The position numbers were made by a program, and so were the translations under genes. DNA of 64,000 nucleotides from an uncultured Planctomycetaceae bacterium (GTDB taxonomy: Bacteria; Planctomycetota; Planctomycetia; Isosphaerales; Isosphaeraceae): contig CAWIAD010000002.1 in assembly GCA_963833985.1 (NCBI GenBank), positions 5,824,001 to 5,888,000 on the forward strand, read 5' to 3'. The notes below the pieces were generated by a model. It was given only the letters and a program-made list of their open reading frames with translations, was not told the origin of the DNA and did not search any database. Positions 40,752 through 57,940 of this stretch are shown here, piece by piece. Position 1 is the stretch's first letter. Every line of letters begins with the position of its first letter.

Positions 40752-41420
40752 CCCTCCATCAAGAAAACCATGAAGGGTTATCCCGACATTCTTCGCGGTA
40801 CTGATCAGGAGGACAAGGAGTGGACGGCATTCGAGGCCAGGGCAAGGCGACCTCGACGCTCCGTTGACCCATCACCGTCTTGAGCGGAATCACCCCAATG
40901 CTTGCACCATTGATCCTCGACTTGCTCTTCGCTTCGCTGCTCTTGTTAGTGGCCGGATGGGCGAGCGACGCTTTCCGCGCGATGATCATGGCGGTCTGCG
41001 TTCGGCGGGGACAAGGGACTGGCACCGGCTGAGCCGCCTGCGGACACCGTGACCCTTGGACGACCCAGGCGCGAGGTGGACCACTCGGCTTCCACCGGGA
41101 AGCCACAGCCCCGTGACGACTCCCATCGTGATCATTCTCGCCCGGACGATATTCTCAGGACGTCCGAAACGGCAGGCTGCCGGTGAGATGCCACCGGTGC
41201 AGGAAGGGGTCCGGTAACCGACGCCGTCGGAGAGCCACCCGGCCAGGCGCCGATCGAACTCGATCTGACCCTTGGGGAGCCATAGCGGCCGGAACCGACA
41301 TCCCGAGCTCCCGGGGTGACAAGGTCCCTGATTCGACGGCGTGTGCTGCCGTTCAGACGGAATGAGGAGCCAGACGGGAGACCCGGGCCAGACTGTCAAA
41401 TCCGCTAGAGTACAGGCTAT

Positions 41421-43434
41421 CACGCCCCCAACAATGTTGCAAAATCGTCCCTGATTCCTGACTCTGTCATTTCCAGATCGCGGCTTCGACCGAAGTACGG
41501 GCACGGATGGCAGCCCCGACTCGATCCCGATCCAAGGCAGGCTGGCGGCCGCGCTCTCGGAGAGGAGGAGTCGACATGATCACGTCCCCACGGAGGCCCA
41601 CGTTCAGTCCTCCTGTCACCCGCCACTTCGAGTTCACTCGGCTTCAGGAGCAATTGATCGCGCGTGCATATCAGGTCTTGATCCCGGTCGTTTCGCAGCG
41701 CCTGGATCGGCCGCGACCCAGCCGCAACCACGCGACTGTGGTCCACACTATCCAGTCCAAGGTCGGGGGGGTTTGACAAACCATGATCACGGACAATCTC
41801 CGCGTGGCGCTCTACGCCCGGGTTTCGGGGGAGCAGCAGGAGAAGGAGGACACGATCGCCAGCCAGCTCGAGGCGGTCACTCAGCGGATCGCCACTGATG
41901 GCTTGGAATGCGAGCCCGAACTGCACTTCGTGGACGACGGCGTCAGCGGTTACATCCTGGCCCGACCGGCACTCGAGCGACTTCGGGACCAAGCCGCCGC
42001 TGGAGCCATCGACCGCCTCTATATGCTCGATCCGGATCGACTTTCACGCAAGTATGCCTATCAGGTCTTGATCCTTGAGGAACTTATCCGGTGCGGTGTC
42101 GAGGTCGTCTTCTTGCGCAACCCCGTCGGCCGCAGTCCGGAAGCCGACCTGCTGCTTCAGGTCCAGGGAATGATCGCGGAATACGAGCGCGCCAAGATCA
42201 TGGAGCGTTGCCGCAGGGGCAAGCAACACGCCGCCCGCCGCGGTTCGGTCAACGTCCTCAGCGGCGCGCCGTACGGCTACCGTTACATCGGCAAGCACGA
42301 GGGAGGTGGCGAGGCGCGTTATCAGGTCCTCGCTGAAGAGTCCCGGGTCGTGCGGAAGATCTTCGAATGGGTGGGTCAGGAACGGTGCTCGATCGGCGAG
42401 GTGTGCCGACGCCTCCGGCGCGACAGTATCCCGACGCGGACCGGGAAATCGGCCTGGGATCGCGCGACGGTCTGGTTGATCCTCAAGAACCCTGCCTACA
42501 AGGGGACCGCGGCCTTCGGCAAGACGCGCTCAGGTGAGTTCAAACCTCAACGCCTCCGCCCGCAGCGAGGCCGCCCCGAACACTCCCGGCGACCGGTCTC
42601 ACGGGTTGATACATCCTCGGAAGATCAAATCTTCATTGAAGTCCCCGGGCTGGTGAGCGAAGACCTCTTCCTGGCTGTCCAGGCCCAGCTTGAAGAGAAC
42701 CGGCAACGCCGTCGCGACCGGCCCGGCGGTGGCCGATATCTGCTCCAGGGCCTGGTCGTCTGCAAGCGCTGCGGCTACGGCTGCTACGGCAAGCCGACGA
42801 GCCGAGCCGCGTTCGAGGGCAAGGGTAGGGTCCGCTACGCGTACTACCGTTGCACGGGCTCTGACGCCTATCGTTTCGGCGGGCAGCGCCTCTGCTGGAA
42901 CAAGCAGATCCGCACCGATATCCTTGACGCTGCCGTCTGGGAGGACTTACGAGGTCTCCTGTCCGAGCCGGAGCGGGTCCGGGAGGAGTACGAGCGGCGG
43001 CTGCAGGGTGCCCAGGGCGGGCCGAATCAGGAGGTGGAGCATCTCGGCAAATTGATAAATAATGTGAAAAAGATGATTTCTCGATTAATCGATGCTTACG
43101 GCGACGGGTTGCTCGACAAATCGGAGTTCGAGCCCCGGATCTCGGCGGCAAGGACGCGCCTCTTCGAGATTGGCGGAGGAGCATCGACAACGAATCGGCG
43201 AGGCCGCCCAAGAGGCGGAATTGCGACTGGTGATCGGTCAGTTGGAGGAGTTCGCACGTCGCGTCTCGCAAGGGTTGCAAGAGCCGGACTGGGCCACGCG
43301 ACGGGAGGTGGTTCGGGCCTTGGTGAAGAAGGTCGAGATCGACGAGCAGGAGGTCCGCATCGTGTATCGGGTCAGTCCGTCCCCTTTTGAGAAAGGCCCC
43401 CAACAACGTAGTTCGCAACATTGTTGGGGGCGTG
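41421..43434 (+). mobile_element. Compact element bounded by perfect 20-bp inverted repeats, carrying a small ORF and a large serine recombinase
   Basis: cacgcccccaacaatgttgc (41421-41440) and its exact reverse complement gcaacattgttgggggcgtg (43415-43434). Confidence 0.75.
41576..41776 (+). CDS. Small hypothetical protein (66 aa) upstream of the recombinase
   Basis: Strong RBS GGAGGAG before ATG 41576; stop 6 nt before the recombinase ATG. Confidence 0.6.
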   Translation: MITSPRRPTFSPPVTRHFEFTRLQEQLIARAYQVLIPVVSQRLDRPRPSRNHATVVHTIQSKVGGV

Positions 43435-43511
43435 TTGTCGGCTTCATCTGGCCTCTCCGCCTTATGCTGGCCGTTATCCCAGGTCGAGAGTTCGGCAGAG
43501 GTCATGTCTAG
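41783..43511 (+). CDS. Large serine recombinase (resolvase, recombinase, zinc-ribbon and coiled-coil domains); frameshift near 43165
   Basis: YARVS catalytic Ser, DDGVSG, RPALERL, DRLSR, PYGY, CKRCG...YYRC. C-terminus is in ORF 43092..43511. Confidence 0.92.
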
Positions 43512-43554
43512 TGGAGCGGAAGGGGATCGAATCCTCAACCTCAGCATTGCGAAC
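43510..43554 (-). repeat. 3' half of tRNA-Ala(CGC), att-like repeat copy 1
   Basis: Minus strand reads TTCGCAATGCTGAGGTTGAGGATTCGATCCCCTTCCGCTCCA (anticodon loop, T-arm, acceptor strand). No 5' half adjoins. Confidence 0.8.
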
Positions 43555-43726
43555 GGAGCATCGGGCGAATTCGTAAGTAGCTTATCGGAAAGAACTTAAA
43601 GTCGCGCCTAGGGTCGCTGGCGGTTTCCGGGAATTTACAGGATTTCCTGTGTTTTTCGTTGGCTTCGCGCCGTATCTCTGCAATTGCAGCGTTCACGCCA
43701 CTGCGTTGCAGTGGCAATAGCCATAG

Positions 43727-45236
43727 TTCTACTGTATCTCTACGTTCGTAGTTGGTTCTTCAAAGGGGGTAAGAGTTTGCGTGAGTAATGCTGGAAGAAT
43801 CGGGCGAGCTCGTTGCGTTCCAACCAACGTGTGGTGCACCGGGAGAGCTTCTCGGGGCTGTTGACGTTGAGACGTTCCTCGATGATCCCTGCGATCAGTT
43901 GCCGCAACCGCGGTGACGTCAATGCCGGTGTCTGTATTTTTTCCCCGCCGCGTCTCCTGATTCAGGAACCACGCGGCCACGAGCGACAAGGTTTGATGGT
44001 GATGCCAGGCGATCCAGTTCCGCACCTGGTAATCGGCCAGGCCCGCCTCCCCTTTGCCCCGCTCCAGGCACTCCTCGATCCGATGCGCCAGTTTGGCCAC
44101 CCGGCCAAATTCGATCAACGGAGTTTCGGCTTTACTATTTGATAAATAATAATCATGTTTAACAGTTCCATCGGCCTGTTGCTCACGCGTGATGAAGAGG
44201 ACCTCCTCGAAACCTGCACGATTGCCCGGTCCTCGAGATTGGACGCGCCGCTTGATCGCGTCGACCACCAAAGGTCCCTTCTCGCCATCACGGACGTCGA
44301 GCCTCGTCCACGCCGATTCCGGCAGGGCCGCACGCCAATGATCCACACGCATGAAAGGAGCCTTGGGGGGTTGACCCCGCCCCCCATATTCCGGTGGCGG
44401 TGCCTCCAGATCGCGGATCGTCGTGTTCGACGGAACCGCCAACAGATACTGCTCCCCCCGCTCCCTCAACGCCTGGCGAAAACTCGCGGGACGGCCCATT
44501 TCATCGTCCCCCGCCACCCACGCGTGTGGCAGCAACCCACCTTGCTCATCCAGCATCGCCAGGGCCAACTGATGGCGCGTCTGGAACTTGATGGACTTGG
44601 GAACGCCAGCCTTGTTCCGGCGGTCGCGATCCTTGGCCCATTCCTTGGGCAAGTAAAGCCTTACATTGGTAATCGTATGCTCTTTTCTAGACGCATAAGC
44701 CATGTAGACGCCAACCTGACAGTTCTCAACCTTCCCCAGCCGGCCGCACCACTGCCGCGCGACGCCCACCGACATAGTCCCTTTCTTGGGGAAGCCCGAA
44801 GGGTCGAAGATAATCACCCCATCCTTCTCGCCCAGTTGCTCGCCGACCTGCTGCGCCAGGATCGTGAGCAGGGGTTGATGATCCCATGGCACGTGCCCGA
44901 TGAACTTTTGGATTCCTTGTCGTTCTTGATCGTGGAGATAAGCGATTCCCTCGCCGGTCTTGTGCTCAAGCTTCGACAGCAGACCGGTAACGTACTCGGT
45001 TGCATGTCGATGTTGTTCAGGTTCGCTCAGGGTCGCAGCGAACGGCTCGATGAAGACGTCCAACCGTTCCAGCAGACCATCGATCAAGTCAGGCGACACC
45101 TGCGATTGTGCCAGCATGTCAGCCAACCGTGCTTCGTATCGTCGATCCATGACGCCCTCGCTTCCTTGTAACATCCTTGACGGAAGCGAATATCAGAAAA
45201 AACCTTACAGTTCGTCAACCCCAGGATACAGTAGAA
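43727..45236 (-). mobile_element. IS701-family insertion sequence, apparently complete
   Basis: IRs ttctactgtatc (43727-43738) and gatacagtagaa (45225-45236); 4-bp target duplication ATAG at 43723-43726 and 45237-45240. Confidence 0.9.
43729..45150 (-). CDS. IS701-family transposase
   Basis: FDPSGFPKKGTMSVGVARQWCGRLGKVENCQVGV, HRIEECLERGKGEAGLADYQVR. Confidence 0.92.
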   Translation of the reverse strand: MDRRYEARLADMLAQSQVSPDLIDGLLERLDVFIEPFAATLSEPEQHRHATEYVTGLLSKLEHKTGEGIAYLHDQERQGIQKFIGHVPWDHQPLLTILAQQVGEQLGEKDGVIIFDPSGFPKKGTMSVGVARQWCGRLGKVENCQVGVYMAYASRKEHTITNVRLYLPKEWAKDRDRRNKAGVPKSIKFQTRHQLALAMLDEQGGLLPHAWVAGDDEMGRPASFRQALRERGEQYLLAVPSNTTIRDLEAPPPEYGGRGQPPKAPFMRVDHWRAALPESAWTRLDVRDGEKGPLVVDAIKRRVQSRGPGNRAGFEEVLFITREQQADGTVKHDYYLSNSKAETPLIEFGRVAKLAHRIEECLERGKGEAGLADYQVRNWIAWHHHQTLSLVAAWFLNQETRRGKNTDTGIDVTAVAATDRRDHRGTSQRQQPREALPVHHTLVGTQRARPILPALLTQTLTPFEEPTTNVEIQ

Positions 45237-50347: not shown

Positions 50348-50392
50348 AGTGGAGCGGAAGGGGATCGAACCCTCAACCTCAGCATTGCGAAC
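50348..50392 (-). repeat. 3' half of tRNA-Ala(CGC), att-like repeat copy 2
   Basis: 44/45 identical to 43510-43554 in the same orientation. No 5' half. Confidence 0.8.
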
Positions 50393-51173: not shown

Positions 51174-53417
51174 CCTACTTTCCGCACATCTCCCTTTGAT
51201 TTCCCCGAATTCGACCTGAGGCCATCTTCTCAGACGCGGCCCCAGGGTCGGTAAACATCTACAAGTCGATCGGCACGGGGACCTTGTTCGGTTCAGATGG
51301 TTCGCCAACCGGACCGTTCCTGAACTCGAGCCATTCTTCGCCTTGTCTTATGACTTGGCAATGTCCAGCCGCGCGCCGCGATTCTCGCCGCGACGACTTG
51401 TGACACGGGCTATGAGCGTAAGTTGAGCGGCTCACAACTTACGTCAAGGCAAATTTGCATAAGTGAATCACAAGATTTTTTGTCCTTGACGTCCCGATCT
51501 CCTCCGCCATCATTGCGGCAAGCCCTGCGGCGGTCGGCCTGCTCCCCTCACGGCCCTGGAAGGCCCGGCGGCGGACACCGGCCAACTCGCTGCAAACCCT
51601 CCGGAGATGATCCGCATGAACGAACCTCAACGACCGCGCCAACCCGGCGAGACGGCCCGCTCGAAGGGACGCACGCGCACGCTCAACACGCGGCGGATTG
51701 CCGCCGTGCCCATCCTGGAACACTTCCTGAGTCGGCTCCGCCTTCGCGAGTTTCTCTGCGACCACCTGCCCCATGAGGACGGCCGCACTCGGGTCCCCAC
51801 GGCCACGGCCTTGCTCGTCCTGCTGCGCAACCTGCTGATCTCGCGTGAGCCACTCTATGGTGTCGGTGAGTGGGTGGCCCGCCATGAGCCGAAACTGTTC
51901 GGGTTGTCCGATGTCCAAGTCGCCGCAATGAACGACGATCGAGTTGGCCGGGCCCTCGACCGTCTCTTCGACGCCAATCTCTCGGGGTTGGCCCTGAAGG
52001 TCGCGGCCCATGCCGTACGCGAATTCGACGTCAGCCTCGACCAGTTACACAACGACTCGACCACCATCACTTTCCACGGTGACTACGAGTCGGCGGAGGC
52101 GGAGCGAACCCTGCGGGGACAATTGCGGTTGGCGGTGACCTGGGGTCATAACAAAGACCACCGCCCCGACCTCAAGCAGCTACTCTACATCCTCACCGTG
52201 ACCGGCGACGGTGCCGTCCCGGTGCACTTTCGCGTCGAGAGCGGCAACGCCACCGACGACCGCTCTCACCAGGAGACCTGGGAGTTGCTCTGTCAACTGA
52301 CCGGACGCCGAGACTTTCTCTACATCGCCGACTGCAAGCTGGCCACCACCGAGAACATGGCCTATCTGCATCAGCGCGGCGGTCGGTTCCTCAGCGTGCT
52401 GCCGCGAACTCGCAGTGAGGACGGTGCCTTCCGCGGCGCCGTACTCCGGGGAGAGATCCAGTGGCGATGGACCCACGACAAGTACGACGACAAGGGACAG
52501 TTGACCGACCGCTTCTCGATCTGCAAACCTGCGAGCCAGACCACCGAGGGTTACCGGCTGATCTGGTATCACAGCACACGCAAGGCCGAGTTGGATGCGG
52601 AGGTACGGCTGACCCGGCTGGAGAAGGCGTTGAAACGACTGGACGAACTGCGTGCCAAGCTCGCCTCGTCCCGAACCCGGTACCGCAGTCGAGCCAAGGT
52701 CGCCGAGGCGGTCGAGGAGCTGCTCCGAGACTGTGAGGTCACCGAGTGGATCTCGGTCGAGATCGAGGAGCAGGTCACCGAAAAGTTCCGCCAGGAGCGA
52801 CGCGGCCGGCCTGGACAGGACACGCGGTACGTCCGAGAGGAGAAGCTCCGTTACTCGTTGAAGCATCGGATTGAGTTGGAGCGACTGGATGAGGAGGCCC
52901 GCTGTGATGGCATTTTCCCGCTGGTGAGCAACGAATCGAAGATGACGGAGCAGGATCTGCTCTTGGCCTACAAACAGCAACCGGCCATCGAACGACGGTT
53001 CGAGCACCTGAAGACTGACTTCGTGGTAGCGCCTATGTACCTGAAGGAGGTGAGTCGGATTCAGGCCTTGCTCTGCGTGTACTTCTTCGTGTTGCTGGTC
53101 GAGGCGCTGTTGGAGCGAGAACTCCGCCGCGCGATGGAACGAGCGGGAATCGAGAGCCTGCCACTGTATTCCGAAGGTCGGGCCTGCCGACGCCCGACGG
53201 CTCGAAAAGTGATCGACCTGTACGAGGACGTTCAAGAGCATTCCCTGAAGGCTGGGAAACGCCCTCTTGAGGTGTTCAGCACAGAGTTAACTCGGCTCCA
53301 GAAGAGAATCCTGCGCCTGCTGGGGATACCCAAAGCCTACGAGATTTGAGCCTGACAGGCCGAAAGACGGCACACGGAAATTAGGAGATAGTCAAGGCGA
53401 GATGTGCGGAAAGTAGG
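51174..53417 (+). mobile_element. IS1634-family insertion sequence
   Basis: 18-bp IRs cctactttccgcacatct (51174-51191) and agatgtgcggaaagtagg (53400-53417). Confidence 0.88.
51607..53349 (+). CDS. IS1634-family DDE transposase
   Basis: NDDRVGRALD, LHNDSTT, GHNKDHRPDLKQL, ADCKL, YKQQPAIERRFEHLK. Confidence 0.9.
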   Translation: MIRMNEPQRPRQPGETARSKGRTRTLNTRRIAAVPILEHFLSRLRLREFLCDHLPHEDGRTRVPTATALLVLLRNLLISREPLYGVGEWVARHEPKLFGLSDVQVAAMNDDRVGRALDRLFDANLSGLALKVAAHAVREFDVSLDQLHNDSTTITFHGDYESAEAERTLRGQLRLAVTWGHNKDHRPDLKQLLYILTVTGDGAVPVHFRVESGNATDDRSHQETWELLCQLTGRRDFLYIADCKLATTENMAYLHQRGGRFLSVLPRTRSEDGAFRGAVLRGEIQWRWTHDKYDDKGQLTDRFSICKPASQTTEGYRLIWYHSTRKAELDAEVRLTRLEKALKRLDELRAKLASSRTRYRSRAKVAEAVEELLRDCEVTEWISVEIEEQVTEKFRQERRGRPGQDTRYVREEKLRYSLKHRIELERLDEEARCDGIFPLVSNESKMTEQDLLLAYKQQPAIERRFEHLKTDFVVAPMYLKEVSRIQALLCVYFFVLLVEALLERELRRAMERAGIESLPLYSEGRACRRPTARKVIDLYEDVQEHSLKAGKRPLEVFSTELTRLQKRILRLLGIPKAYEI

Positions 53418-53801: not shown

Positions 53802-53987
53802 CGCAGGCTGATACACGGGCCAGAGAGCGTCGGCTGTGCGTGAGCAGGCTAAGCGACGCGAAATCAGCGATTCCTGAGCAACATCGCTGAGGGTACCAAC
53901 AAAATTCCCCTCGAAGAGCCTGGTCACTTGATCAAGCTTCCCGAGGGGTGTACTCCGTGGTTTACCACAACAGCGGAGTACTCGACC

Positions 53988-54572
53988 ATGTATCATGATT
54001 TACCCCGGACCGCCAGGCTCTGGTCGTTTCTTTGGGCTGTCGACCAGCATCTCGCAGAGGAAACCCGCAAGCAAGCATGTTCATGTGGCGGCCGCCTGCA
54101 CGCCGCCAACTATCTCCGCAAGCCACGCGGCACTGCCGTCCAGCTACCCGAGCAAGAATGCCTCAGACTGAGCTTCTGCTGCGATCGCGAGGGCTGCAGG
54201 AAGAGAGTCACACCGCCGTCGGTGCGCTTCCTGGGCCGCAAGGTCTACCTGGGCGCGATCGTGATCCTCATCAGCGCCATGCGGCAGGGACCCTCGCCAC
54301 GCCGCGTCCGCGAGCTTTCCACACGCTTCGGCGCCGACCGCCGGACCATCGCCCGCTGGCAGGTCTTCTGGCGCGAACGCTTTCCTCAGACACCATTCTG
54401 GAAGGTTGCAGGCGCCCGGTTGGTGCCGGTCCTGGAGATCCTCTCCCTTCCCTACTCACTTGTCGACGCCTTCCTCTCCCGCCATCGCATCTGCAAAGGG
54501 TGGACGCTCCTGCTGCGGTTTCTCGCACCGATCACGATCCCCGGCGGCCTGCGAATCGAGGTCTCGCGATGA
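53988..54572 (+). CDS. Transposon-associated zinc-ribbon/HTH hypothetical protein
   Basis: CSCGG, SFCCDREGCRKRVTPPSVRFLGRKVY, RRTIARW. First gene of the DDE/ATPase operon. Confidence 0.7.
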   Translation: MYHDLPRTARLWSFLWAVDQHLAEETRKQACSCGGRLHAANYLRKPRGTAVQLPEQECLRLSFCCDREGCRKRVTPPSVRFLGRKVYLGAIVILISAMRQGPSPRRVRELSTRFGADRRTIARWQVFWRERFPQTPFWKVAGARLVPVLEILSLPYSLVDAFLSRHRICKGWTLLLRFLAPITIPGGLRIEVSR

Positions 54573-54668
54573 TCGCTTTCCACCCGCAGAAGATGCTCGT
54601 CGCCGATTTTGATCCGCCGATTTATAGAGGTTGTCACGGTCCCTTCACCCGACTTGTGAGGAGATGTG

Positions 54669-56142
54669 ATGACTCAAAGACACCCCTGTTCAACCGCTGC
54701 CTTGTGGGCACGGTTTCGGTTCTCCGTGGTGGGCTCGCTCCTGAGCTCTCCCCCTGCGCGGATCGCTTCAGACAGCGATCTGCTCCCTTGCCGAAAAGAC
54801 CTGGTCGCATCCTGTGACGGGGCGCGATGTCCGCGTCGCGGCCGCCACCATCGCGCGCTGGTACTACACGGCGCTCCACCAGCCTGACGACCCGGTCGCC
54901 GCCTTGCGTCGTGCCGTGCGGAAAGACTGCGGAAAGATCTCGCTGGCGGCGACCCTCGCCGAGCGACTCCATCTCCAGTATCGCGATCACACGGACTGGA
55001 GCTATCAACTGCACTACGACAACCTCGCCGCGCTCTTGAAGGCCGATCCCTCACTGGGGCGGCTCCCCTCCTATTCCACGATCAAGCGTTTCATGCAGGC
55101 TCACGGCCTGGTGCGCAGACCGAGGCTCCGGCCCGGCGGACGCCCTGGCGAAGTCCGCGCCCAAGAGAGGCGTCAGACACGGGAAATCCGCAGCTACGAA
55201 GCCACCCATGTCGGAGCGCTCTGGCATCTCGATTTCCACCACGGATCGCTCAAGGTGCTCACTCCCGGCGGCCAGTGGCTGCGGCCAATCGCGCTGGGCA
55301 TCCTCGATGACCACTCACGACTGTGCTGCCACGTTCAGTGGTATCTCTCGGAGACCGCCGAGGACCTGGTGCACGGACTCTCCCAGGCGATCCAGAAACG
55401 GGGCCTGCCGTGCGCGCTGTTGACCGATAACGGCTCCGCGATGGTGGCCGAGGAAGTCACCGAAGGGCTCTTGCGTCTGGGCATCGTCGCAGAGCGAACG
55501 CTCCCTTATAGCCCGTATCAAAACGGCAAGCAGGAGGCGTTCTGGGGCACGCTCGAGGGGCGGCTCATGAAGATGCTCGATGGTGTCAGGGAATTGACCC
55601 TGGAATTGCTCAATGAGGCAACCCAGGCCTGGATGGAAATTGAGTACAACCGCGCCGTGCACCGCGAGACCGGCAGCTCGCCGGTCGACCGCTTCGCCAA
55701 GGCCCCCGATGTGCTTCGCTCGAGCCCTTCGAGTGTAGCGCTGCGTGCGGCATTCCGCCTGGAGACCAAGAGGAGCCAGCGTCAAAGCGACGGCACCATC
55801 TCACTGGAGGGGAGGCGCTTCGAGATTCCGGCAAGGTACCGTCACTTCCGCGCAGTGACCGTCCGTTACGCCCGCTGGGACCTCGGCCGGATCGATCTGG
55901 TCGACGAGCAAAGTGGAACCGTCCTGGCTCCCATTTATCCCCTCGACAAAGCCGCCAACGCCGACGGCCGCCGGGCCGTAACCGGGTCCGGTGGCACCGA
56001 GGTGCCGTCCCCAGAGCAGCGGCGCGACGCCGGCGAACTGCCACCCCTCCTGAAAAGGATCCTCCAGGAGTACTCGGCCACGGGCATGCCGCCGGCCTAT
56101 TTGCCCAGGACATCCCCGAAAGACAACGGAGAACCCTCATGA
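54669..56142 (+). CDS. DDE-type (rve/Mu-like) transposase; frameshift(s) near 54760-54810
   Basis: WHLDFH, LDDHSR, LTDNG, PYSPYQNGKQE, Mu-like C-terminal DGTISLEGRRFEIP. Confidence 0.85.
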
Positions 56143-56984
56143 ATAGCAAGAAACTGCTGGCACTCTATGGGCTGAAATGGAACCCGTTTTCACCCGAGCT
56201 TCCTCCCGAAGCACTGCTGGCGCCCCCCAGGATCGAGCAATTTGCCTGGCGCGTGGAACAGCTGGTCCAGGAAGGAGGCTTCGCGCTGATCACGGGTGAG
56301 TCGGGCACCGGCAAATCGGTGGCGCTGCGGATTGTGGCCGGGCGGCTGGCGGCGCTGCGGGATGTCACCGTCGGTGTGATCGAGCGACCCCAGTCGAAGA
56401 GCCCCGACTTCTATCGGGAGCTGGGGGACATCTTCGCGGTGAAGCTGGCACCGCACAATCGCTGGTGCGGGTTCAAGGCGCTCCGCGAGCGGTGGAAAGC
56501 CCACGTGGCCTCCTCGCGGATCCGCCCGGTGCTGCTGATCGACGAAGCCCAGGAGATGAGCCCTGAGGTCCTCTGCGAGCTGCGTATTCTCTCCAGCGCC
56601 GACTTCGATGCCACGTCGCTTTTGACCGTGATCCTCTCGGGAGATGAACGACTGCTGGAACTGTTGCGGCACGAAGATCTGGTGCCCCTGGGCACCCGGA
56701 TTCGCACGCGACTGGTCACCGAGCCCGCCACCCGCGAAGAGCTCCTGGAGTTGCTTCAACACGCGCTGGCCAAGGCCGGCAATGCCGCGCTCATGACGCC
56801 CCAGCTCGCAGAGACACTGGTCGACCACAGCGCGGGGAACTACCGTTTGCTCATGATTATGGGAGGTGAGCTCTTGGCCCATGGCATGGCGCACGAAATC
56901 GGGCAGCTTGACGAGAAGTGCTACCTCGAGGTCTATCAGCCGCGAGGCCCGCGCCCTGCGCTGAAGAAGAAAGCGAAGGTGTGA
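56139..56984 (+). CDS. ExeA/AAA_22-type transposition helper ATPase
   Basis: Walker A GESGTGKS, Walker B LLIDEAQ; ATGA overlap with the transposase. Confidence 0.88.
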   Translation: MNSKKLLALYGLKWNPFSPELPPEALLAPPRIEQFAWRVEQLVQEGGFALITGESGTGKSVALRIVAGRLAALRDVTVGVIERPQSKSPDFYRELGDIFAVKLAPHNRWCGFKALRERWKAHVASSRIRPVLLIDEAQEMSPEVLCELRILSSADFDATSLLTVILSGDERLLELLRHEDLVPLGTRIRTRLVTEPATREELLELLQHALAKAGNAALMTPQLAETLVDHSAGNYRLLMIMGGELLAHGMAHEIGQLDEKCYLEVYQPRGPRPALKKKAKV

Positions 56985-56986
56985 CG

Positions 56987-57940
56987 ATGGCGACCAGTGG
57001 CGAGCAAGTGCTTCCGGTGGTGCGTGTGGCCGAGCTTCCCAGCGATGAGCTCGCGGAGCGATGGCTGGTGGAGCAGCTCTGGTGTGCCCACGCGGTGGGC
57101 GTCATCGGCGGCGCTCCGAAGTGCGCCAAGACGTGGCTGGGGCTGGACATGGCCCTCTCCGTAGCCACGGGCACACCATGCCTGGGCAAGTATGCCGTAC
57201 CGGAGCCGGGACCGGTTCTGGTTTACCTGGCTGAGGATGCGCTGCGGGCTGTGCGCGAACGTATCGAGGGAATGGCCCGGCATCGCGGTCTGGATCTCGA
57301 CGAGGTGTCGATCCACGTGATCACGGTCCCGGTGCTCCGGCTCGATCACGATCGAGACCGCACGCGGCTGTGGGAGACAGTGCGGGGGCTTCGGCCTCGG
57401 CTGCTGGTGCTGGATCCCCTGGTGCGACTTCACGGCATCGACGAGAATCATGCTGGCGACGTCGCCGAATTACTCGGGTATCTGCGGTCGTTGCAGCGTC
57501 AGCTTGGCCTGGCGGTTCTGCTGGTGCATCACACGCGGAAGAACGCCGCGGACGGTGTTGCCGCCGGTCAGGGCCTGCGTGGGTCGGGTGACATACATGC
57601 CTTCGGCGACTCGAACCTGTATCTCCAGCGCACGAAGGAGCACCTGATCCTCTCCAGCGAGCACCGGTCGGCGCCGGCAGTAGCGCCTGTTTATCTGGAG
57701 CTGGTCGCCACCGACGCGGGGACAGCTCACCTGGAGGTCATCGCAGCGCCTGATGATCGGAACGGGCGCGACCTCGAAGGGCAAGTGCTGAATCTTCTGG
57801 CTCAAGGCCGAGTGCTTACGCGAGCGAGCCTGCGTGATTCGCTGGCGGTGAAGAACGAGCGTTTAGGGACGGTACTGGAGTCACTGGAGCGCGCCGGCAA
57901 GATCGGCCGCACAACTGGAGGCTGGCGACGTCTCCGCTGA
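56987..57940 (+). CDS. AAA_25/RecA-like ATPase (RepA-helicase-like)
   Basis: GGAPKCAKT, YLAED, LVLDPL, VHHTRK, LRGSGD. Confidence 0.85.
   Translation: MATSGEQVLPVVRVAELPSDELAERWLVEQLWCAHAVGVIGGAPKCAKTWLGLDMALSVATGTPCLGKYAVPEPGPVLVYLAEDALRAVRERIEGMARHRGLDLDEVSIHVITVPVLRLDHDRDRTRLWETVRGLRPRLLVLDPLVRLHGIDENHAGDVAELLGYLRSLQRQLGLAVLLVHHTRKNAADGVAAGQGLRGSGDIHAFGDSNLYLQRTKEHLILSSEHRSAPAVAPVYLELVATDAGTAHLEVIAAPDDRNGRDLEGQVLNLLAQGRVLTRASLRDSLAVKNERLGTVLESLERAGKIGRTTGGWRRLR

Follow-up and report, generated by a model that had tools for sequence, protein, structure and literature searches.

Tn4451, moved by the large serine recombinase (LSR) TnpX, is grouped here with Tn5397 for comparison. The skin and fdxN elements switch host genes by regulated excision, and complexes of integrases with their directionality factors have already been solved structurally. 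Tn5397 prefers a Fic-domain gene and a GA core, and a cited title reports TndX alone as sufficient for both directions (PMC4430133); IS607 lacks terminal inverted repeats and has an N-terminal DNA-binding domain (PMC6188088); and DUF4368 is found in 63% of the multi-targeting LSR clade of Durrant et al. (PMC10083194).

The locus compared with these systems lies in a 64-kb stretch of bacterial DNA (the window), in which an earlier note had described a unit resembling an insertion sequence (IS) and built on an LSR. The note proposed that copies be compared, and the genome (10.16 Mb, two contigs) was found to contain 11 full copies with 99.9% identity, all matching the window from 41419 to 43434, as well as one additional element fragment with 81% identity. 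Identity ends sharply at both positions in all 11, which supports the minimal LSR element that had been envisaged. On this sequence evidence the element is real, mobile and recently active.

Anatomy of the element and its recombinase

The unit is 2,016 nt long and its features lie on the plus strand. It begins with a 2-bp crossover core, AT (41419..41420), common to all 11 copies, followed by a 20-bp inverted repeat (41421..41440) that forms one arm of attP and is the perfect complement of the other arm at the right end (43415..43434). As the note had claimed, this repeat is perfect (0 expected in 100 shuffles); over 23 nt the match is 96%. The left arm is kept in relatives down to about 45% LSR identity, and the right arm also encodes the last recombinase residues, QHCWGR. 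Placed around AT, the two 20-bp arms make up an attP that is a 42-bp palindrome. Between the arms lie an ORF of 66 amino acids (41576..41776), which is present as described, bears a motif conserved across the family and is predicted to encode a candidate recombination directionality factor, and the LSR gene (41783..43434), which in intact copies extends for 550 codons as far as the end of the element. A third gene was not recognised within the unit, in line with the claim that it carries neither cargo nor phage genes. The right-hand core, TT (43435..43436), is target DNA and mismatches the element's AT, as judged from empty sites in two related genomes (G012:C85 and G001:C437).

The crossover had originally been placed elsewhere, at a GGCT that recurs outside both repeats (41415-41418 and 43440-43443), with the arms 11 nt apart in the circle. 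The GGCT does occur on both sides of the window copy, and it is neither a core nor a duplication: it flanks no other copy, AT being found on both sides in ten of the 11, and the identity among copies runs from 41419 to 43434. The empty orthologous sites in G012 and G001 retain the nine bases that such a model would remove, and observed junctions have 2 nt between the arms, around AT. With the crossover at a 2-bp core, the empty-site and junction sequences proposed in the note do not hold, and a GGCT core has next to no chance of being correct.

The LSR assignment stands. The protein matches the Pfam domains Resolvase (residues 8-155), Recombinase (185-306) and zinc ribbon (320-390), all above their cut-offs (PF00239, PF07508 and PF13408), and the residues Y11, R13, V14 and S15, and C327, C330, C357 and C371, are invariant. 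The domain order is catalytic, recombinase, zinc ribbon and coiled coil, such that all features of the class are present: an N-terminal catalytic domain with the YxRxS serine, a recombinase domain and a zinc ribbon with a coiled coil. The top fold matches are the SPbeta, phiC31 and Bxb1 integrases (16-18% identity). In NCBIfam the protein scores above the cut-off for no named family (bits against cut-off: CcrB 98/900, XisF 97/375, CcrC 77/900, IS607 26/110), and DUF4368 was not detected in the Pfam scans. For homologues on plasmids, the annotation, if one is given, is 'recombinase family protein'.

The intact LSR gene runs for 550 residues to the end of the element and has no stop codon inside it. 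In 115 of the 120 top homologues the conserved part of the protein likewise closes with a CWGR-like motif, beyond which the tails are unrelated, a pattern that would arise if the reading frame continued into the neighbouring DNA. The C-terminal tail would thus come from whatever DNA adjoins the core, and the circular and integrated forms would differ at the C-terminus. Two database proteins (P0074 and P0004) have a stop-less recombinase fused to a reverse transcriptase (RT) or sulfatase domain; these are likely read-through products rather than true fusions. In the window copy, an extra T (43162..43163, +1 frameshift), absent from the alignment in the ten other copies, leaves an ORF of 535 amino acids that ends in the wrong frame, with a stop at 43390. 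The extra T is either a real mutation or a sequencing error. Unless it is the latter, the window copy likely depends on other copies, because the frameshift removes the C-terminal part with much of the predicted interface for the small protein.

Target sites in this genome and in relatives

Nine of the 11 copies split the same RT codon, between PQGAP and ISP (PQGAP on one side and ISPLL on the other), seven along the direction of the RT gene and two against it. The target gene is part of a group II intron (Rfam RF02003 and RF00029; Pfam RVT_1 and GIIM). Twelve near-identical intron starts are present in the genome, each at a different site: nine are interrupted, two are intact, with one AT where the element would otherwise lie, and one lies at a contig break with the element's end just visible. 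The fragment with 81% identity ends at the same RT codon, in a diverged intron remnant. In another RT, unrelated to this one (36% identity), a good site is unoccupied. Only the window copy and one at C1:1.742 Mb lie outside introns. The earlier suggestion of a relaxed-target integrase is correct in that some target tolerance exists, and incomplete in that nine of 11 copies occupy one preferred codon site in RT motif 4.

Several features of the assembly were seen alongside. Both contigs of this genome, C2 and C1, begin inside the same interrupted intron, so a twelfth copy of the element is the likely cause of the break in the assembly. Short inverted repeats of one family serve as insertion sites for the intron itself (e.g. 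C2:1391320, C2:2152285 and C1:773979), and 11 of the 12 upstream exons share a similar terminal motif. One interrupted intron contains a further insertion of ~1.28 kb in its downstream half (C2:2147541-2148825), giving three nested elements. The last ~140 kb of C1, from ~3.37 Mb to its end, hold no element copy, deviate in tetranucleotide profile (0.85-0.90 versus 0.96-0.99) and give the impression of alphaproteobacterial DNA, for which reasons C1 may be chimeric.

The distribution within introns raises a possibility that is compatible with the main model and would add to it, namely that most copies did not arise by separate insertions: one intron would have gained the element, and the resulting composite of 4 kb would have spread either by retrohoming, using RT provided in trans by intact introns, or by gene conversion among introns. 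At position +18 of the downstream RT half, all seven forward-interrupted introns have C, while the two reverse-interrupted and the two intact introns have A; the link with orientation would arise once in 36 if allele and orientation varied independently in the nine interrupted introns (hand calculation). Every intron is at a different site, and Rfam gives the ribozyme parts the same scores whether or not the intron is interrupted, both of which favour composite spread. Against it, the element variant e848A is found with both intron haplotypes at +414/+678, and the intron variant 831T is shared by a forward and a reverse copy, which conflicts with a single tree and fits repeated insertion, recombination or polishing errors. 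Furthermore, two orientations and two non-intron copies require at least four insertions, and the C at +18 is also carried by an older remnant intron. Spread of a composite is proposed as less likely than not.

Relatives of the element are numerous. A scan of one genome per species confirmed at least 548, from which 79 best-hit loci (42-97% identity) were kept; titles among the matches listed include Planctomycetota, Chloroflexota, Proteobacteria, Acidobacteriota, Spirochaetales and others. Among 60 related genomes, ten had matches, all within the same family, and many relatives are broken. Those with paired repeats measure about 1.9-2.05 kb. An RT match adjoins the element in 46 of the 79 listed loci; 27 had none by the same test, which misses some (L047 and L049 carry RT motif-4 flanks), and in six the flanks were too short. 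Among all the loci collected, those with both repeats and both flanks gave 40 distinct sets of element plus flanks, which are best hits, partly from the same genomes, and not independent samples: 26 lie between two halves of RT motif 4, six between two like halves, which may be assembly errors, and eight elsewhere. Orientation in the 26 is even (12 with the RT gene and 14 against it). Of the 40 sets, 22 have AT/AT cores, 14 have AT at one end only and four lack it altogether; the cores are mismatched in at least 15.

Individual relatives have other flanks. Two elements with ~51% identity (L092, 1789-2148, and L096), from two organisms, are inserted in IS256 (Mutator) transposase genes at a VVGIFPNE motif; to judge from these flanks, the family is retargeted to another mobile element. 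Six loci (L015, L025, L031, L041, L045 and L046) are flanked by short palindromic repeats, which look REP-like, and the three of these that come from one genome, G002 (L015, L025 and L031), use a CT core. In genome G007, RT halves are shuffled between copies (A+X, A+Y and B+X in L007, L018 and L028), two of which are inverted and 13 kb apart on one contig; these, like the six sets with two like halves, are either chimeric introns formed by recombination between copies or misassemblies.

The skin and fdxN elements suggest a different role, in which the intron or its host would retain the element to toggle RT by regulated excision. Excision via the AT core would restore the RT frame exactly, as in the intact copies; the element interrupts nine of the 12 introns, and its end is visible in a tenth, at the contig break; and the LSR is weakly similar to XisF (97 bits for a cut-off of 375). 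A retained switch is nevertheless improbable. Copies are also found at unrelated sites (the window and C1:1.742 Mb), the distribution is patchy (10/60 relatives) with many relatives broken, and the mismatched cores in at least 15 of the 40 sets would not restore a gene cleanly, all of which fit selfish spread.

The window copy lies at one of these unrelated sites. When each of its flanks was searched alone, both were found adjacent and with no offset in G012:C85, and the same stretch in G001:C437; both empty sites read GGCT-TT across the junction without a gap. The target sequence was therefore TT, the AT on the left was brought in by the element, and the nine bases in dispute are host DNA. 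The empty site that the earlier note had suggested looking for thus exists in both genomes, but not with the sequence of the GGCT model. The left AT is missing from these orthologous sites and also separates the arms in a circular contig from a relative (L135), which points to the element's attP as its origin. Comparison with the empty sites confirms the window copy as an off-target insertion with a mismatched core, AT/TT. This pair of ends would be the outcome of a 2-base staggered exchange with a mismatched core, followed by repair, a reading for which serine-recombinase chemistry provides an established basis.

Read on the minus strand, the window site is in the top 1.0% of genome positions when scored with a matrix made from the RT sites. 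Eight of the nine non-RT sites ranked, including that of the window, are in about the top 1% or better with the better orientation taken (three of the nine are from one genome and share a flank); the exception, L021, scores no better than background (top 18%).

The surroundings of the window copy are rich in other features. Partial copies of the 3' part of tRNA-Ala(cgc), at 43505-43555 and 50348-50392 (minus strand), look like att repeats of islands stacked at that tRNA, the full gene for which is at C2:5921270-5921343; the element is ~70 bp outside the leftmost partial copy. No tRNA or Rfam family reached threshold in the 64-kb window. To the right of the element is a separate IS701-family transposase gene (43729-45174, minus strand), above its cut-off, the end of which has at least 12 further matches in the genome, and further ORFs inside the island region (51607-53349 and 53928-57940) resemble a transposase and a transposase/ATPase cluster.

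Joined ends and the candidate directionality factor

The earlier proposal that the repeats join into an attP-like site on a circle is supported by two relatives. One is a 2,125-nt contig (L135) with a 127-nt terminal repeat, equivalent to a circularly permuted element of 1,998 bp with both ORFs and with its arms joined by AT. It is the sole match of a looser DNA junction pattern; the exact 36-nt junction pattern gave no match in metagenome contigs and none in viral contigs. When the left end was translated in the frame of the circle and searched in longer proteins, 35 matches were obtained, one of which has recombinase domains. This protein (P0148, 84% identical) is represented by one record, from a contig of 1.5 kb; its right-end motif continues directly into the left-end peptide, so that it spans the junction. 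Reads were another place where the note had expected the circle junction. Among the sequencing runs listed, none covered half of the stretch (best share 0.33), and four soil runs, of 22 listed, contained no circle joint and no empty site, a result that is no evidence of absence; loose ends of relatives at 43434 were seen in three soil runs. The sequences therefore support an excised circle with an attP junction in the relatives L135 and P0148, and not for this genome's own copy. Both are single assemblies, and a head-to-tail dimer would assemble alike.

A 2-bp AT is shared by the empty introns, both element ends and the junction, with mismatches in other loci. According to PMC11722253, the distance of the second DNA-binding motif of serine integrases from the centre is 5 bp shorter in attB than in attP. 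For the outer arm motif of this family, the downstream attB half fits best at a shift of 5 bp (0.53), closely followed by 6 (0.51); for the upstream half the best shift is 4 (0.43), so that the 5-bp fit is only suggestive.

These junctions also bear on whether the unit is a conventional IS with transposase-type terminal repeats, in which AT would be a 2-bp target duplication. Its size, terminal repeats and copy number, and the AT on both sides of 10/11 copies, would all suit an IS. However, its sole enzyme is an LSR, AT is on one side only in 14/40 sets, the joined ends hold a single AT, and the window copy has a TT target opposite a left core of AT, which duplication cannot produce. A conventional IS is thus very unlikely and largely refuted.

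The small ORF, bearing its motif, ends beside the start of the recombinase gene in 47 distinct loci where that gene is unbroken, a count that left out the broken, truncated, duplicate and motif-less loci among the 79 listed. R22 and Y32 are invariant among 36 aligned small ORFs (35 of those loci and that of the window). The ORF belongs to no Pfam family and none of the 36 members is named at a useful level; its best matches in the ESM Atlas (0.87-0.88) are to unnamed clusters and serve as a lead only.

The complex predicted for the small protein with LSR residues 150-550 scored 0.72, compared with 0.01 for the best of three controls; the mark applied to such scores was reached by 116 of 157 solved pairs and by two of 215 mismatched pairs. 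Contact agreement was at least 72% and the pLDDT of the partner at least 64. The predicted interface on the LSR comprises residues 384-406 and 490-532, which flank the base of the coiled coil in the model (mean pLDDT 76.5). PMC11722253 places the predicted binding sites of known directionality factors in a common region close to the base of the coiled coil. By this model the small protein would contact the LSR there, in the manner of a directionality factor, and is likely a helper of the LSR. The prediction may partly reflect likeness to the solved integrase-directionality-factor complexes.

Proposed mechanism and comparison with known systems

Taken together, the data indicate, with a probability of about 85%, an IS-sized element found mostly in one RT codon of group II introns and likely moving via a circle by serine-integrase chemistry. 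This reading is built on direct observations: the sharp ends, the 2-bp core, the 11 copies, a single preferred target in several phyla, insertions in either orientation, the empty site of the window copy and the joined ends of relatives. The LSR would cut at the 2-bp cores and release a circle of ~2.0 kb, in which the two 20-bp repeats would meet around AT to form the palindromic attP, and the predicted directionality factor (66 amino acids) would license excision. The circle would recombine with the conserved PQGxx and ISP codons (attB), or with weaker look-alike sites, and the symmetric attP and palindromic AT core would make either orientation possible. Core mismatches would be tolerated and then repaired to give different dinucleotides at the two ends, as in AT/TT at the weak look-alike in the window. 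Insertion would truncate the RT at a position outside the ribozyme parts scored by Rfam, so that an interrupted intron would need RT in trans.

The element is likely a parasite of another parasite, the group II intron. It is possible, and at present doubtful, that this undescribed and widespread 2-kb serine-integrase family is a dedicated hyperparasite of group II introns. Such an element would land in the most conserved RT motif, fill nearly all introns (nine or ten of 12 here) and ride the crippled introns by retrohoming with RT supplied by the few intact copies, while sister elements would be retargeted (IS256).

The family adds a layer to the ecology of mobile elements, in that the most conserved coding motif of one selfish element is a landing pad for another in many phyla. 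It could limit the spread of group II introns or account for many of the split RT genes in databases. It also offers compact serine integrases with a readable attP, hundreds of natural attB examples and an adjoining candidate directionality factor, which would be useful in studying how serine integrases recognise DNA and cope with mismatched cores, and in building tools.

Nothing of this sort is described in the literature searched, a search with ISfinder entries, subscription journals and large LSR tables outside its range; to that extent the earlier view of the element as unclassified is upheld. The main text of PMC10083194 does not contain 'reverse transcriptase', and RT terms are absent from its eight text supplements; PMC7306698 has no mention of 'recombinase'; and the subjects of PMC9203015 and PMC8632793, in their available parts, are unrelated to such an element. 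The element is apparently an undescribed variant among the known serine-integrase elements.

Two assignments were considered and rejected. Membership of IS607 is ruled out by the terminal repeats, the domain order and the score below the cut-off, and a DDE-type IS with terminal repeats by the lack of both a DDE transposase and a true target duplication.

The element resembles the phage-type serine-integrase systems (SPbeta, phiC31, Bxb1 and LI/A118) in domain order and in its 2-bp crossover core, as well as in its top fold matches and a small partner predicted at the base of the coiled coil. Unlike those systems, it totals ~2.0 kb, with two ORFs only, and has none of the phage structural or conjugation genes of a serine-integrase prophage or integrative and conjugative element. 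Its attP arms are perfect inverted repeats, it has many copies per genome in both orientations, it tolerates core mismatches, it targets a gene of another mobile element, and its recombinase gene passes through attP without a stop. Like Tn5397 (TndX), it is an LSR element that favours one coding target and also uses secondary sites, with a dinucleotide at their centre, whereas Tn5397 is 21 kb and conjugative and the element is cargo-free with a conserved second ORF. In the multi-targeting LSR clade DUF4368 is common and not universal; the domain was not detected in the element's LSR. With IS607 the element shares its small size, movement by a serine recombinase and the absence of a true target duplication, and differs in its perfect repeats, its N-terminal catalytic domain, the absence of TnpB and a score of 26 bits for a cut-off of 110. 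Like fdxN/XisF, skin and the SCCmec Ccr systems, it is an LSR element that interrupts a conserved coding sequence, which could be re-formed by excision; the scores of its recombinase are below all the curated cut-offs for XisF, CcrB and CcrC. Unlike them, it is multicopy and its target is a selfish element rather than a gene of the host.
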